A DNA stretch of 64,000 nt from Rhodothermales bacterium (GCA_965200825.1 OZ241385.1:461276-525275); one strand, 5' to 3'; shown: positions 7,186 through 13,275, numbered from the stretch's first letter. Notes: generated by a model not told the origin, from the letters alone. Translations and numbers: made by a program.

Positions 7186-8095
7186 ATGTCAAAAATAGTC
7201 AGCTGTATGGATCGCCGAGAATTTATTACTACTACTGTGGGGGCATTATCGGTTGCAACGGTGCTTCCCGGACGAGTGATTGGTAGAACAAGTCATGTCT
7301 CTCCGAACGATAAAATTCATGTTGCATTGATTGGCTGCGGAACGCAGGGCTTGCGTCAATTGATGAGCGATTGGTTGCCAAGAGATGATATTCATCTGGT
7401 TGCACTTTGTGATCCAAATAAGGATTCGGAGGATTATCGTGACTGGAGTCCACATGGACTCCGCAATGAGGTGCGTCAGTTTTTGAACAACCCAAATTGG
7501 GGATCCGAAACAGGGATTCGAGCCGGCCTCATGGCGGCAAAGGAGGTAGTTGAAGGTCATTATGCAAACAAACGCGGACAGAGTAACTGGCATGGCTTGA
7601 AGCTTTACTCGGATTTTCGAGAAATGCTGGCCGAGTCCGAAGGCATAGATGTCATTATTAATGTGACACCTGAGCACCTTCACGGAGTCATTAATATTGC
7701 CGTAATGAAGGCGGGAAAAGCTGTGGTCTCTCACAAGGTACTTGCCAACACATTGCATGAGGTGCATCAAACTGTACAGGTTGCCAAGGAAACCGGTGTG
7801 ACAAGTCACCTATTGGCGTGGAATAATGATCCCGAACTCTATCAATTGTGGGAGTGGATCGATCTGGGAGTCATTGGTAAAGTAAAGGAGGTACATAATT
7901 GGTCCAATCGCCCTGTGTGGCCACAGGGGTGGCTTGAAACACCCAAGGAGGAAATGGCAATCCCAGATGGCCTAGACTGGAAACTGTGGCTTGGATGTGT
8001 TCCTGATCGACCATATCATATTGATTACACGCATGCTCTTTTTCGAGGATGGTATGAATTTGGGAGCGGCGCTCTGGGAGATATGGGATACTATA
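7186..8095 (+). pseudogene. Gfo/Idh/MocA oxidoreductase (TAT signal), N-terminal fragment, interrupted by IS insertion
   Basis: MSKIVSCMDRREFITTTVGALSVATV (TAT motif), Rossmann HVALIGCGTQG, then …GSGALGDMGYY where the reading frame runs into the IS terminal inverted repeat at 8096. Confidence 0.75.
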
Positions 8096-9723
8096 GAGCC
8101 TCTTGCAAAACCTCTGAGCTCGAAGAACTGAGGGACAAAAGAAGATAGTACTGTTTATTCTTCAGGCCCTGTTTTGTTCCCAAAAAAGGGAAGATTTTCG
8201 ATCAGTTTCCTTGGAAGCCCTGTCTTTTTCGAATTTCGTAGAACATGCGCCTTCATTTCATCTGTTTGGGGGCATAATTCGTACCGATTCCCCCCACCAA
8301 TCCTACGAGTCCCTGATTTCAGAACCCCAAATTTTGATTCTTAAACGCAGATTGAACCCGTTTACTGGATCAATCGGAGCATTTGGTCTACCGTGAGCAC
8401 CACCACGCCAAACATCAGGTGACACCTTACTTTCTCATGTCCACGCACTCGAAGATTGCGTGCGCCAAACTCATCCTTCAACCGTCCAAACGCCCGCTCT
8501 ACGGTAGATCGCTCTTTGTAACGTTCCCGCTCCGCAGGAACGAAATTTGCATGCCGCCGTGCCTTTAGCTCCCGGTCATGCGCCGCTTTTTGATTGCGCG
8601 GATTCTTGTCAATGATCGGAACCCGTCCAGCAGCTCGGCTCTCTGCGTATAGATCCTCTGCGTCATAGGCACTGTCCATGATCTCATACAGATACGCAAC
8701 CTGTTGCTCCGTGATTCGAGACAGTGGAATGGCTGCCTGACTATCATGCATGGACGCAGACGTTACCATACAACTGATAGGAATACCACCATCCGCAGTA
8801 TCCATGTGGAGCTTATATCCAATCCATTTCGTCGTATGCCCCTTTGCATTCCGCTTGCATCCCACGGTACAGTCGTTTGGAAGATCCTCCAACATTTCGT
8901 CTACGTCCATCGTCCGTTGTTTTTCCATGCGACGAAGTTCCTTGGGCCGTTCTTCTCCCTTTTTCGGACGTCCACGCTTTTTCGGGGCAGGGGCAGGAGC
9001 TTCCTTCTTTGGAACCGGTTTCTCTCGGGCCTCAATCGCCGTGGAATCCCGAGAAATATGGCCCACCAACTCTCCGTCATACCCTTCTGCAATCAAGGCC
9101 TCATGAATTCGGTTCGGGAGCTGATTGTGCGCAAACTCTCGGAACGCACGCGAAAACGTGGATTCACTGGGCACGGTCAGATCGCTGGGCCAGCCACAAA
9201 TGGACCGAAGGATCGAATCGGTCAACAGCCGCTCTCGGAGCGCTGACGTCGTCTGGATATTCAAGACCATCTTCGCCATAAAACTCCGCGCAAGACTCGC
9301 GCGATGCGCTTCCGGGCGTCCTCCATATCGACCGGGCAACGAGCGCGGAAGATGATCGTCCACTCGTGCTATTTCAAGCACCATCATCAGCTTCTGGTAC
9401 CGCTTGGGGAGTGAGCCAAACTGCCGTTCCAGCCACGGAAACAATTCTTGCTGGCAACTGATATAAAAGCCTCGTATTTTCTTTTTAAGGGACATGGGAA
9501 CCTCCGTTTTTGTGTTTGGATTTTGATACCCTAAAGATACGAAATCTGGAGGATTCCGTCCCTTATTTTAACTCCGGAATAAGAGTCAATCTGGTATGTT
9601 TCGAGACAGAAAAAAATAATTTGACCAGGTTCCCAAAAGGCGATCTAAATTGCCCGAATTGGATGCGCAGAGGTCGGGAATTTTTCAAAAAATACCCCGA
9701 TCCAGAGGTTTTGCAAGAGGCTC
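8096..9723 (-). mobile_element. Intact insertion sequence, IS4/IS5 superfamily (DDE_Tnp_1-type transposase), about 1628 bp
   Basis: Perfect terminal inverted repeat: 8091-8116 ctatagagcctcttgcaaaacctctg is the exact reverse complement of 9703-9728. Likely structure is a 21-bp IR (gagcctcttgcaaaacctctg) flanked by a 4-bp TATA direct duplication (8092-8095 and 9724-9727). Contains a single transposase ORF. Confidence 0.8.
8362..9495 (-). CDS. DDE transposase (IS4/IS5 superfamily)
   Basis: 377 aa. C-terminal YKERSTVERAFGRLKDEFG matches the Y-x2-R-x3-E-x6-K signature of DDE_Tnp_1 transposases, and there is a basic KKRGRPKK linker. Sits between the inverted repeats. Confidence 0.75.
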   Translation of the reverse strand: MSLKKKIRGFYISCQQELFPWLERQFGSLPKRYQKLMMVLEIARVDDHLPRSLPGRYGGRPEAHRASLARSFMAKMVLNIQTTSALRERLLTDSILRSICGWPSDLTVPSESTFSRAFREFAHNQLPNRIHEALIAEGYDGELVGHISRDSTAIEAREKPVPKKEAPAPAPKKRGRPKKGEERPKELRRMEKQRTMDVDEMLEDLPNDCTVGCKRNAKGHTTKWIGYKLHMDTADGGIPISCMVTSASMHDSQAAIPLSRITEQQVAYLYEIMDSAYDAEDLYAESRAAGRVPIIDKNPRNQKAAHDRELKARRHANFVPAERERYKERSTVERAFGRLKDEFGARNLRVRGHEKVRCHLMFGVVVLTVDQMLRLIQ

Positions 9724-10326
9724 TATAGTTTGTGGAGAACTTATCGGATATTGAATCCGGGGCCAGTGATCAGCGTGCAATCCAATGCAGCGACTGGAGC
9801 GGCCATTGTCAGAAATCAGAGCCAATGGCGGCGCTCGAAGGTTGCATTCCCCACTGCCAGCATGGTTCATTTTGAACACCGAGATGTTGATATTTTCTGG
9901 TATGATGGAGGGATGAAACCACGCATTCCCAAAGGATTGCTGGCATCGGGTGAGGCGCTTCCCATGGAAGGAGCCCTGTATGTAGGAGAACATGGAGTGA
10001 TCATGGGCAACGACTTTCTATCGAAAAGTTTTCGTCTTCTGCCTGAACGTCAAATGATCAATGAGCAAGGATCCATTCCAATTAAGCGACCGGTTGAAGC
10101 GGTGAAAAATTTGACAGATGAGTATGTAGATGCAATTCGAGAGGGAAAACAAAGTCGGGGAAGCTATATTAATGTTGCGAATCTTGCCGAAGCCTGTGCG
10201 CTCGCAAACATATCTCTGCGTACAGATGAACATATCACTTGGGATGCGGTGAATCAGAACATTACAAGCGGCAACGTCCCACAGGAGTACATCACACGTG
10301 AATACCGTGAGGGCTGGTCTGTCTGA
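9724..10326 (+). pseudogene. Gfo/Idh/MocA oxidoreductase, C-terminal fragment (continuation of 7186..8095)
   Basis: Translation LWRTYRILNPGPVISVQSNAA… resembles the C-terminal alpha/beta domain of the family. Both fragments are in the same frame modulo 3, and removing the IS plus one TATA copy (1632 bp = 3x544) restores …GDMGYYSLWRTYRILNPGP…. Confidence 0.7.
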
Positions 10327-10413
10327 ATCTAGGCTCCGGGCATGCTCGATCAATCATTGGTAGCAATGATACCGTCTTGGTAGGCAGGTTGAAATTTTGT
10401 CTGTATTCAATTG

Positions 10414-10770
10414 GGTTCTACTACAATTTGTATGGAATGATTAATTTTGGTTGAACGAACCTTAAACTCATTTTCGAATGCAAAGCAACGTAATCGATTC
10501 CATCATGGAGTACTCCTTTGGGTCATCAGTGTGGAAGAGTCGGGCGTGAACGAAGTCATGAAGATTGCCCAGATGTTTCAGAATCATCTTCACGGGGTTT
10601 GTAACGCGCTTTGTCACCCACAATCCAATGCCAAAGCGGAGCGAATGAATGGAAAATCCAAGAGGTCAAAACGATCGGTAGAGGATACAGGAAATTTGAA
10701 AACTTCAGATCCGCCATCCTCTTCTTCTGCGGTGGCCTAGCGCTTTATCCACAACAATCGTAGTAGTACC
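10414..10770 (+). repeat. Direct repeat copy 1: 3'-terminal fragment of an ISL3-like transposase gene plus its downstream end (frameshifted)
   Basis: About 95% identical to 12696-13049. Encodes …SNAKAERMNGK… matching the ISL3-family C-terminus N-x3-EG-x-NNKIK-x2-KR-x2-YG-x-RNF-x-NFR-x2-IL. Copy 1 has a 1-nt deletion relative to copy 2. Confidence 0.7.
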
Positions 10771-11031
10771 TCACTTTCTTATCTCTTTCATGGTTTTCAT
10801 CTGCCATCGGGTTTCCTTAGAATCACCCAGTGGGGATTATCAATATACGTGAACTACTTTCAAGGTTTAGTGTTATTAGAATATAGGTTTGGCCTTAGAA
10901 TGAACCCCATCCCATCAAATGAACGGGTGAGATTGATGAGCCTTATTACTGGTGCTTCTTTCATCATGTCCTCTTATAAAATTCCCCATCAATGATCTGG
11001 CTTTCATTCTCTCAAGCACTGATCCTAATTC

Positions 11032-11532
11032 ATGAAAACTACCCTACTGACTCAATCAGATCAAAAGGAGGCACTTTCACATGTGTATGTGAGGTCACTC
11101 GCTGCTATATCTGGTTTTATTACGTCTGTACCAGAGCAAGATCGTGATAGTGTTGACTTACGAATCCAGGCTGGCGGTTCTCGTAGGCCTGCCTTAGATC
11201 TACAATTAAAGGCCACAACTAAATTATCGGCTAACCAAGAAGGTGCTCTAAATTTTCGCATCTCTATTAAAAACTACAGAGATCTTCGCGACAAGACGCA
11301 AACTCCGCGATTGCTCGTTGTATTGAAACTACCAGAGGACCCGTCAAAATGGTTGATGGTAACTCCTGAAAAACTTATACTTCATAGTCATGCCTATTGG
11401 CTTAGTTTACAAAAGGGTTATGAGGACGTGGCTGATCAAGAAACGATTACGGTCCATATTCCTCAAAAAAATGTACTCAATGTTGAAACTTTGAAAACCC
11501 TAATTGAACAATCCAGAACTGGTACAATCTAA
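11032..11532 (+). CDS. DUF4365-like (PD-(D/E)xK-clan nuclease-like fold) protein
   Basis: 166 aa. N-terminus QSDQKEALSHVYVRSLAAISGFITSVPEQDRDSVDLRIQ follows the pattern I recall for DUF4365 (…E.lg..yV..la…Gf…..Eq…DyGiDl.I.). Its stop shares 1 nt with the next start (taATGa). Confidence 0.5.
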   Translation: MKTTLLTQSDQKEALSHVYVRSLAAISGFITSVPEQDRDSVDLRIQAGGSRRPALDLQLKATTKLSANQEGALNFRISIKNYRDLRDKTQTPRLLVVLKLPEDPSKWLMVTPEKLILHSHAYWLSLQKGYEDVADQETITVHIPQKNVLNVETLKTLIEQSRTGTI

Positions 11533-12680
11533 TGAGATTCAGCATTCATGATCGAGATTCATTACTGGCCATCACGCCGGTTGCTCTTTCCACATATGCA
11601 AATACAGCTGGGTGGGAGCGGCAAGGGACATACCGTGAGCATTCGGATATTTATACTGGTGAAAATCTTCCAGAAATCATTGTTCCTCGAACCGATCGCT
11701 TAGGAGATTATGCGAGCGTGGTTGTTGAATTGATTCGGATGTTTGCCCAAGTCAAACATCAAGATGAGTCAAGTGTGTATCGATCACTTTTGACTACAGA
11801 CCGTGATATCGTTCGTTTACGTACGGGAGATGAAGAGAAGGGTAATTTATCCCTTGACCAAGGCGTTGACTTAATTAGCGGTGCCCGTGATATGTTGAAG
11901 GCAGTGGCATGCTCTCTGGGGAATCCCAAAATGGTGTACCGGGCTGGGGCACATCAAAGTGCGCGTGATCTGCTTTCCAGGGTCCGTCTTGGACATACTG
12001 AGCGGGGTAGCTATGTGATTACATTGGTGATGCCAGTTTTGCCGCCTCCGACACCAGTAATGTTTCCAGATGACTCAGGATCAGACTTACCAATTGAACG
12101 ACTTCTCACTGTTCGCTTAATGAAGGCTCTTTTCGCTGCACGTTCAGCAACAGAGGAAGCTGTATCTGGCGGTGCAAATTCTTTTAGGGAAGCCGTGGAA
12201 GATGGAGTGAGTGCCAACCTTTGCGAAGCTTTGGTACAGATCATTGATTCTTCCGATACACTTGACGTAAATGTGACTTGGGCCAGTAGTCAGCCTAACG
12301 AACTGTTGCATAAGACAGCCTTCTTTAGTCGTACAGATCTGCCCATATTACGCAGTGCTGCGCGGTCGTTTAGAGAGTATTCCCCCAAACCTGATGTTCG
12401 CCTGTATGGATATGTACGACTACTGGAACGAGGACCAGAGGAAGAAGATGGGACGATTCGTCTAAATACAATGGTAGACAATAAGAACGTATCCGTTACG
12501 GCGATGTTGGGACGCCAGGACTATGAACGGGCGGTTCAAGCTCATCGTGATAAAGCATTGGTTATTCTTTCTGGTGATCTTGAGCACTTTGGACACCGAT
12601 GGAAGCTATTGAACTCACAATTTGAGGGAGTGCTTAGAGACGAAGAATGTGATCTTGTTGAGCAGTCATCTGTGATGTGA
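11532..12680 (+). CDS. Hypothetical protein, partner of the DUF4365-like gene (no recognisable motifs)
   Basis: 382 aa, translationally coupled to the upstream gene. No Walker A, HEPN, HNH or other motif found by eye. Long ORF with normal codon usage. Confidence 0.5.
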   Translation: MRFSIHDRDSLLAITPVALSTYANTAGWERQGTYREHSDIYTGENLPEIIVPRTDRLGDYASVVVELIRMFAQVKHQDESSVYRSLLTTDRDIVRLRTGDEEKGNLSLDQGVDLISGARDMLKAVACSLGNPKMVYRAGAHQSARDLLSRVRLGHTERGSYVITLVMPVLPPPTPVMFPDDSGSDLPIERLLTVRLMKALFAARSATEEAVSGGANSFREAVEDGVSANLCEALVQIIDSSDTLDVNVTWASSQPNELLHKTAFFSRTDLPILRSAARSFREYSPKPDVRLYGYVRLLERGPEEEDGTIRLNTMVDNKNVSVTAMLGRQDYERAVQAHRDKALVILSGDLEHFGHRWKLLNSQFEGVLRDEECDLVEQSSVM

Positions 12681-12695
12681 GTGCTTCAAAGAAAA

Positions 12696-13049
12696 GGTTC
12701 TACTACAATTTGTATAGAATGATTAATTTTGGTTGAACGAACCTTACCTCATTTTTGAATGCAAAGCAACGTAATCGATTCCATCATGGAGTACTCCTTT
12801 GGGTCACCAGTGTGGAAGAGTCGAGCGTGAACGAAGTCATGAAGATTGCCCAGATGTTTCAGAATCATCTTCACGGGGTTTGTAACGTGCTTTGTTATCC
12901 ACAATCCAATGCCAAAGCGGAGCGAATGAATGGAAAAATCCAAGAGGTCAAAAAGATCGGTAGAGGATACAGGAAATTTGAAAACTTCAGATCCGCCATC
13001 CTCTTCCGCGGTGGTCTGGCGCTTTATCCACAACAATCGTAGTAGCACC
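12696..13049 (+). repeat. Direct repeat copy 2: 3'-terminal fragment of an ISL3-like transposase gene (intact frame, 95 codons)
   Basis: Encodes MNAKQRNRFHHGVLLWVTSVEESSVNEVMKIAQMFQNHLHGVCNVLCYPQSNAKAERMNGKIQEVKKIGRGYRKFENFRSAILFRGGLALYP. Same orientation as copy 1. Identity breaks down at identical points on both sides. Confidence 0.7.
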
Positions 13050-13275
13050 AAAAATTCAAACCCTAAAAACCGTGGCATGTAGTCCCTTACGGATAGGCTG
13101 CAAATTTGTCAGATATTTTTCGAATCAGGCATCATATAAGAGGAGTTGAGTTGCCTGTGTGTGTCTTTTACGCAACTGTTATGGAAAATAGTGACATCTT
13201 GTCACTGTGTCGTTCTGTGGAATGCTTTTGGATTCTTGGCAAGTCAGGTTTACACATTGACAAAACGACACTGTT

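Follow-up and report, generated by a model that had tools for sequence, protein, structure and literature searches.

In a 64,000-nucleotide stretch of DNA from a Rhodothermales bacterium (GCA_965200825.1, OZ241385.1:461276-525275; hereafter the window, in whose coordinates all positions are given), we identified a compact gene pair, A and B, that belongs to the PDC-M02 family of candidate defence systems and lies between two miniature ISL3 elements. We propose, with moderate confidence, that the DNA between these elements (10771-12695) is a horizontally mobile two-gene conflict module that is carried between them and that would work by a sensor-effector mechanism, with B as the sensor and A, a predicted nuclease, as the effector. 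A first-pass annotation of the DNA had described the locus as a candidate mobile defence or addiction module. That description agrees with our finding that A and B both match PDC-M02 models and that relatives of the pair sit in type I restriction-modification (RM) operons, on plasmids and in prophages. Its further suggestion that the system might be novel has to be given up, since PDC-M02 has already been catalogued with 894 RefSeq instances (Payne et al., bioRxiv 10.1101/2024.01.29.577857). The cassette and its flanking elements are laid out as follows:

10414..10770, + strand: mini-ISL3 copy 1, 357 bp, resembling a miniature inverted-repeat transposable element (MITE); left inverted repeat (IRL), 5' untranslated region (5'UTR), start codon, last ~93 transposase codons and right inverted repeat (IRR)
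10771..11031, + strand: cassette leader, 261 bp of non-coding DNA that travels with both genes
11032..11532, + strand: gene A (PDC-M02A), 166 aa, stand-alone DUF4365/DREN PD-(D/E)xK nuclease, predicted effector
11532..12680, + strand: gene B (PDC-M02B), 382 aa, uncharacterised partner, predicted sensor or regulator
12696..13049, + strand: mini-ISL3 copy 2, 354 bp, in the same orientation as copy 1
12755-13042, + strand: transposase remnant of mini-ISL3 copy 2, an in-frame open reading frame (ORF) of 95 aa

The PDC-M02 gene pair

The DNA between the repeats contains exactly two long same-strand ORFs (11032-11532 and 11532-12680), as first described, and the TAA stop of A and the ATG of B share nucleotide 11532 within ATCTAATGAGA. 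In searches with PADLOC profiles, A matched 25 PDC-M02A models (best PDLC04278, E = 5.9e-51, residues 6-164 against profile positions 3-164 of 167) and B matched 37 PDC-M02B models (best PDLC04298, E = 1.2e-109, residues 1-363 against profile positions 1-369 of 380). PDC-M02 is defined as cassette CAS_00021, FAM_01850>>FAM_00842, and is one of 145 “guilt-by-embedding” candidates from BREX, DISARM and type I RM loci (Payne et al., bioRxiv 10.1101/2024.01.29.577857). The window genes are adjacent and co-oriented in the order A>>B, on the + strand with a 1-nt overlap. They thus share with PDC-M02 the same family hidden Markov models over their full length, the gene order, the adjacency and the sizes (~166 + ~380 aa), and judged by its sequence the pair is a PDC-M02 member on every computable feature.

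The annotation had assigned the A protein to DUF4365, a PD-(D/E)xK-type domain, and a profile search bore this out: A matched Pfam PF14280 (DUF4365) with E = 1.6e-19 and 70.7 bits against a gathering cut-off of 24.3, over profile positions 1-137 of 139. The domain covers essentially all of the 166-aa protein (residues 13-159), with no APAZ fusion. In the literature on SPARDA systems DUF4365 is named DREN, a PD-(D/E)xK DNA/RNA effector nuclease (PMC12205087; PMC10810196; bioRxiv 10.1101/2025.04.08.647717). When we compared a structure model of A (predicted local distance difference test score, pLDDT, 76.6) with the Protein Data Bank (PDB) using Foldseek, the top 10 matches were all SPARDA DREN-APAZ chains with probability 1.00 (including 9qcc, 9qbp, 9qbq, 9vx6, 9jsz and 9jt2). 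Structural neighbours also include Hjc and I-Ssp6803I. PDB sequence searches with A and with an A profile returned nothing meaningful, and the link to SPARDA is seen only by structure comparison, not by sequence search. Across 32 homologues, E13, D39, D42 and the Q58-L-K60 motif are invariant. Mutation of Q62/K64 inactivates the SPARDA nuclease TmuRE (PMC10810196), and Q58/K60 of A would correspond to these residues, an equivalence drawn from motif position rather than from a direct pairwise alignment. A is thus a DREN-family PD-(D/E)xK protein with an intact catalytic motif and predicted nuclease activity.

Gene B had been described as encoding a protein with no recognisable motif, and we likewise found no Pfam or NCBIfam family in it, with only noise in a Pfam search across 44 aligned B homologues and no relative in a PDB sequence search. 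Pfam and NCBIfam scans gave no match to an NTPase or nuclease family, family scans and fold comparison detected no modification-reading domain (SRA, YTH, EVE or similar), and B showed no Argonaute or APAZ similarity. A structure model of B (pLDDT 83.5, predicted template modelling score 0.73) comprises an N-terminal alpha-beta-beta-beta-alpha domain resembling HicA and the double-stranded-RNA-binding domain (dsRBD), a helical middle and a C-terminal OB fold (~residues 286-368). These predicted folds are of nucleic-acid-binding type. The B family is large, with 4232 representatives at 50% identity (E<=1e-3), almost all of them stand-alone proteins of ~375-390 aa. Among the variants, a 752-aa protein (P0249) has a tetratricopeptide repeat (TPR) array appended after a full B, and a 453-aa protein (P0274) has a TPR array in place of the C-terminal OB-like region. 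These hint at an exchangeable C-terminal recognition module, although they are only two cases and may be gene-call fusions.

We examined the pairing of the two genes in the 80 genome loci (L006-L085) that are the closest relatives of the window pair; these loci were found through a good B match and are biased for B. In ~68 of the 80, an A homologue ends 3 nt before the B start, and ~75 of 77 show a stop-start overlap of the form T(G/A)ATG or ATGA, in line with the co-translation envisaged at first. The divergence of A tracks that of B (Mantel r 0.69, a value reached by 0 of 2000 permutations). Between the window and an independent copy of the cassette in another metagenome (L086), both A and B give a ratio of nonsynonymous to synonymous substitution rates (dN/dS) of 0.164, and B without A in a third relative (L004) still looks constrained (dN/dS 0.157). 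By these comparisons, A and B form a coupled, co-inherited unit under purifying selection.

Damage to A is frequent in these B-selected loci: it is intact in 50 of the 80, disrupted in ~21 and deleted in 9. In the Vicinamibacterales and Gemmatimonadota metagenome-assembled genomes (MAGs) that include L018, L033, L037, L044 and L060, B is intact and A almost wholly deleted, and these solo-B loci immediately follow hsdS-like genes of type I RM operons. We considered whether such loci represent swaps of the effector and rejected this reading, since A-deleted loci keep remnants of A, a few codons from its N- and C-terminal ends, fused to the start of B (e.g., MTATLL...LMERSRSGDI in L037), which indicates deletion instead. 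Two apparent natural A-B fusions (P0033 and P0084) were likewise rejected as Rosetta-stone evidence, being N-truncated A genes that read through into B. An A-anchored sample of viral contigs, meant to remove the bias of selecting by B, yielded one locus only.

Relatives of the pair occupy varied contexts, many of them mobile. In one locus (L092) the pair is embedded in a type I RM operon as hsdM-hsdS-[A-B]-[AAA_21+DUF4276]-hsdR; in another (L091) it adjoins hsdR fragments and insertion sequence (IS) elements, and in a third (L090) it lies among plain metabolic genes. A conjugative Gluconobacter plasmid carries the pair beside RelE/ParE genes, and in Mycobacterium abscessus prophages it forms genes 1-2. 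B relatives are also carried by Leptospira phage LE1 and an IMG/VR contig, and a DUF4365 gene lies directly upstream of B in the M. abscessus prophages, in LE1 and in the IMG/VR contig. Both A and B match PHROG families. The operon in L092 holds a second embedded pair directly after A-B (9273-11059), an AAA_15/AAA_21 ATPase with a DUF4276 protein, and HEPN/MNT-like nucleotidyltransferase pairs lie upstream, giving a stacked ‘embedded defence’ locus.

In the 80 closest loci, B is 49-64% identical to the window protein. The hosts comprise Rhodothermales, Acidobacteriota, Alpha- and Gammaproteobacteria, Cyanobacteria (including Ca. Synechococcus spongiarum) and Acidimicrobiia, together with Spirochaetia, Gemmatimonadota, Binatia, Latescibacterota and Nitrospirales MAGs, ~ten bacterial phyla in all. 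The identity of B does not track host phylogeny, which implies extensive horizontal exchange. To go by the names of the records, Ca. Synechococcus spongiarum and Ca. Spongiisocius among them, most of these loci would come from sponge-associated bins, suggesting that the exchange is bound to habitat.

Miniature ISL3 elements and the mobility of the cassette

The cassette had been reported to lie between two ~355-bp direct repeats, ~95% identical, that encode the C-terminus of an ISL3-like transposase. We recovered repeats of 357 and 354 bp (10414-10770 and 12696-13049) that align with 94.97% identity over 358 columns in blastn, in four co-linear blocks of 90-98% identity with three small indels between them. 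In the window, the 20 nt that form their left terminus are found at these two places only, where chance would give 0 occurrences. What both copies encode is the end of an ISL3 transposase, its last ~80-93 residues, with matches to Pfam DDE_Tnp_ISL3 at positions 163-240 of 240 (E = 2.7e-15) and to the NCBIfam ISL3 profile at 288-369 of 370. Copy 1 matches transposase residues ~312-404 of 405 in tblastn in two frames, changing frame in an A-run near 10653-10656, in agreement with the 1-nt frameshift noted in this copy; copy 2 gives a single high-scoring segment pair.

The repeats had been taken for 3' fragments of a transposase gene. The C-terminal codons are indeed present, but so are both terminal inverted repeats (IRs) in each copy: imperfect 23-nt IRs at 10414-10436 and 10748-10770 in copy 1, and IRs at 12696-12710 and 13035-13049 in copy 2, the termini reading GGTTCTAC...GTAG(T/C)ACC. 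For comparison we used a full-length ISL3 element with a 405-aa transposase in a Rhodothermales MAG (L089/L010), which starts with GGTTCTACCACAATTTGTGTGGAATGAG...ATG, ends with ...GTAGAACC and is bracketed by an 8-bp target-site duplication (TSD), CGTGAAAT. The window repeats align with its first ~65 nt (IRL, 5'UTR and start codon) and its last ~280 nt, and lack ~codons 3-311 (~930 nt of the transposase gene). The window copies share with ISL3 insertion sequences the termini, the 5'UTR and the transposase C-terminus and, like MITEs, are short units bounded exactly by the two IRs of the parent IS; they differ in being non-autonomous, neither copy having the full-length DDE transposase (~400 aa) of an autonomous ISL3. 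On this anatomy we class the repeats as complete, internally deleted, MITE-like ISL3 elements. A further locus (L024, 1-1180) has a full-length ISL3 transposase gene that shares 63% identity with the one in L089 and stops ~190 nt upstream of an A gene truncated at its 5' end, so that ISL3 elements are repeatedly associated with the PDC-M02 cassette in Rhodothermales MAGs.

The limits of the cassette are set by comparison with its relatives. The independent copy (L086/L087), with protein identities of 91% for A and ~88% for B, occupies an unrelated site beside an ornithine decarboxylase gene. At the nucleotide level it is homologous to window positions 10775-12694 with 88% identity, exactly the inter-repeat DNA, as compared with inner mini-ISL3 ends at 10770 and 12696. 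The non-coding stretch of the leader is 77% identical between the window and L086. The third relative, L004, has B only, beside an MmeI-type RM gene, and is homologous to window positions 11530-12693. L086 and L004 thus both lose homology to the window at 12693/12694, 2-3 nt before copy 2, and their similarity to each other continues only ~20 nt past this breakpoint, placing the module's natural right end just after the B stop. The boundary logic anticipated for the cassette therefore exists: by alignment it is a discrete, transferable unit, and, as in composite transposons, two direct element copies enclose a cargo whose homology ends at their inner ends. Transposition of the whole unit, as a composite-transposon-like structure, is plausible.

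The first-pass annotation had proposed a different route, based on the repeats alone: a circular molecule carrying the cassette and one repeat would have entered through homologous recombination with an ISL3 fragment already in place. The repeats are in the same orientation on both sides of the cargo, their 5% divergence is compatible with recombination between non-identical copies, and neither single copy has a TSD, all of which would suit this route. The argument for it had been the matching boundaries of the two repeats, but the presence of a complete element, with both IRs, in each copy accounts for them fully. The route also predicts identical outer 8-bp flanks, whereas TTCAATTG (left of copy 1) and AAAAATTC (right of copy 2) differ at >=5/8 positions; the inner flanks are TCACTTTC for copy 1 and AAAGAAAA for copy 2. 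We consider such an arrival quite improbable. Its variant, a tandem segmental duplication, is ruled out by the DNA between the repeats, a foreign cassette whose homology has precise limits.

The locus has received other insertions. In a sister-strain contig (L003, 2827-6673), a 3847-bp IS1595-family transposon, absent from the window, is inserted inside mini-ISL3 copy 1 at the position of window 10577-10584, with 23-nt terminal IRs (GGGAATTATATACGAAAGTGCCG...), an extra internal copy of its IRR and an 8-bp TSD (TTCAGAAT). Its passenger is an 807-aa type IIG RM gene (HSDR_N_2 + N6_Mtase + Eco57I), which is a second, independent IS-borne defence gene arriving at the same locus.

The cassette stands between a Gfo/Idh/MocA oxidoreductase gene and clpB (start 13276), agreeing with the IS-disrupted gene and clpB noted initially. 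The interrupting element is:

~8097-9722: IS splitting the Gfo/Idh/MocA gene, ~1.63 kb, with perfect 27-nt IRs; transposase at 8362-9495, minus strand (Pfam DDE_Tnp_1/DUF772)

The IS is flanked by a duplicated CTATAG at 8091-8096 and 9723-9728. In L003 the IS is absent and the oxidoreductase gene intact (495 aa), so the insertion is recent and strain-specific. A transposase closely related to that of this IS sits between A and B in L089/L010, and an IR similar to its own lies ~150 nt downstream of B in L004. Public MAG annotations (L001-L003) list as a gene a 109-aa ORF at 12749-13078 on the minus strand, antisense to the copy 2 transposase remnant; no family match is recorded for it, and an artefact of annotation is the most likely explanation. 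The leader of the cassette (10771..11031) presumably carries a promoter and ribosome-binding site. A sigma-70 consensus scan of the leader gave no score above chance, and promoter and terminator scans, GC profile, Rfam and tRNA scans gave nothing significant.

Proposed mechanism and rival functions

The cassette is most likely an abortive-infection or restriction-like module in which B would sense an invader and A would degrade DNA. In SPARDA, the isolated DREN domain is monomeric and inactive, and a filament of the sensor joins four domains into a non-specific nuclease (PMC12205087; bioRxiv 10.1101/2025.04.08.647717). Because A is essentially a bare DREN domain, and B is a multi-domain, NTPase-free protein with folds of nucleic-acid-binding type, a sensor or scaffold role for B is the most economical model. 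Translational coupling would fix the stoichiometry of A and B, and an A-B complex would hold A monomeric and inactive. Upon invasion by a phage or plasmid, the C-terminal domain of B may bind an invader-specific ligand, for which single-stranded nucleic acid or a protein associated with it is the probable candidate. Oligomerisation of B would then gather A subunits into an active tetramer, and the tetramer would degrade DNA, leading either to aborted infection or to restriction of the invader.

A more specific version of this model, which we put forward tentatively and regard as rather less than probable, would make B an Argonaute- and NTP-independent sensor that polymerises on single-stranded DNA, RNA or a protein like the single-stranded DNA-binding protein SSB through its OB and dsRBD-like domains and so assembles the DREN tetramer, as a guide-free analogue of SPARDA. 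The clade might then serve as a habitat-specific ‘public good’, carried on IS-derived vehicles among at least ten sponge-microbiome phyla.

Several observations weigh against a mobile, sensor-effector defence module. Payne et al. call their 145 candidates explicitly untested (bioRxiv 10.1101/2024.01.29.577857), and we found no validation of phage protection in the literature for PDC-M02 or any DUF4365 two-gene system. The window copy has clpB, smc and an oxidoreductase gene as neighbours and lies in no defence island. A is broken or missing in ~30 of the 80 B-bearing loci, a pattern that would also fit a toxin-antitoxin pair. As to carriage by the mini-ISL3 elements, none of the four flank pairings showed an 8-bp TSD around the whole unit or around either element, tblastn detected no full-length ISL3 within the 64 kb of the window, and a metagenome scan with the 20-nt terminus turned up no mini-ISL3 beyond the two in the window; the TSD and multiple dispersed copies of a typical MITE are thus missing, as are the TSD and, in the window, the cognate transposase of a composite transposon. 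For these reasons, transposition as a composite unit is only a candidate route; the unit may instead have arrived by double recombination through the elements on either side, or a rearrangement next to it may have removed the TSD. Two metagenome matches to the 20-nt terminus were rejected as unrelated sequences rather than true copies, and an ATTCAA hexamer common to the flanks, 3-4 nt from the outer ends, was judged a chance match and not a TSD. Using the exact ClpB protein to look for an empty site or other strain variants led back to the same MAG contig alone, and revealed neither an empty strain carrying a single mini-ISL3 and a TSD nor a site free of mini-ISL3.

The strongest rival is a toxin-antitoxin or addiction function, in which A would be a constitutively toxic nuclease and B an antitoxin that sequesters it, so that the pair stabilises its mobile DNA. 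The tight coupling of the genes, their plasmid copies beside RelE/ParE and Fic genes and their positions at prophage ends all fit such a role. So does the frequent loss of A by frameshift, IS interruption or deletion where B is intact, together with the continued constraint on the solo B of L004. The asymmetry in decay is suggestive of a toxic A, but the loci were chosen by a good B match, which biases it. The SPARDA studies, in which isolated DREN is monomeric and inactive, argue that A alone may be non-toxic. Moreover, B is atypical for a type II antitoxin, with 382 aa, three domains and a position downstream of the putative toxin, and Pfam and NCBIfam scans found no match in it to a DNA-binding antitoxin family. 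We regard this reading as unlikely; the toxin-antitoxin and abortive-infection roles are not mutually exclusive.

Somewhat less likely again is direct restriction of the type IV kind, with B recognising foreign nucleic acid, modified or single-stranded, and targeting A to it while the host survives. PD-(D/E)xK is the classic restriction fold, restriction and homing endonucleases are among the structural neighbours of A, the pair is found within type I RM operons, and the model of B contains an OB fold and a dsRBD-like domain. Set against this, the DREN systems that have been characterised all work through collateral, non-specific degradation, and no SRA, YTH, EVE or similar modification-reading domain was detected in B. 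Finally, a selfish homing cassette, in which A with B would cut empty sites and so propagate the cassette, would account for its sharp and nearly identical limits in three unrelated contexts and for the resemblance of DREN to the tetrameric homing endonuclease I-Ssp6803I, but we consider it very improbable, given insertion sites that are unrelated (intergenic, RM operons, plasmids and prophages) with no conserved target, and the non-specific activity of characterised DREN nucleases.

Relation to known systems and significance

The window copy shows no structural difference from PDC-M02; what sets it apart is its surroundings. Whereas relatives sit in type I RM operons, as in the family definition, the window pair has no RM or BREX embedding and lies between two mini-ISL3 elements beside housekeeping genes, in an uncultured Bacteroidota MAG (MCY4204840/1). 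With SPARDA the cassette shares the effector domain (DUF4365 = DREN, with the catalytic QxK kept) and the layout of a two-gene sensor and effector operon, but because it has no short prokaryotic Argonaute (MID-PIWI) partner and no APAZ domain fused to the nuclease, it is not a SPARDA system. Hachiman consists of HamA, a DUF1837 PD-(D/E)xK nuclease, and the helicase HamB, a partner that monitors nucleic acid state. The likeness lies in the two-gene logic of a PD-(D/E)xK nuclease restrained by a larger partner; A differs in belonging to DUF4365 rather than DUF1837, and B has no helicase or ATPase motif or family match, so that the two systems have no domain in common. Divona, an integron-cassette gene that combines DUF4365, an Mrr-like nuclease and crr6, is validated as anti-phage (bioRxiv 10.1101/2024.07.02.601686) and resembles the cassette in having a DUF4365 domain outside an Argonaute context, but it is a single fused protein with other accessory domains and without a B-like partner.

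Beyond the PADLOC entry, our analysis identifies PDC-M02A as a DREN protein at the level of structure, supplies a domain model of PDC-M02B, gives evidence that the pair is co-inherited and under purifying selection, and describes a mini-ISL3 vehicle. The DREN nuclease has so far been understood only as the Argonaute-coupled effector of SPARDA, which is under development for diagnostics; PDC-M02 would show how such a nuclease is controlled without a guide-loaded Argonaute, in a large family spread across bacteria, plasmids and phages. The window copy is compact (1.9 kb), intact and constrained and retains its native leader, making it suited to cloning and a good experimental target. More broadly, the locus illustrates on a small scale the part that IS-derived elements play in moving defence genes around a population of strains, through a mini-ISL3 pair here and an IS1595 element in the sister strain.

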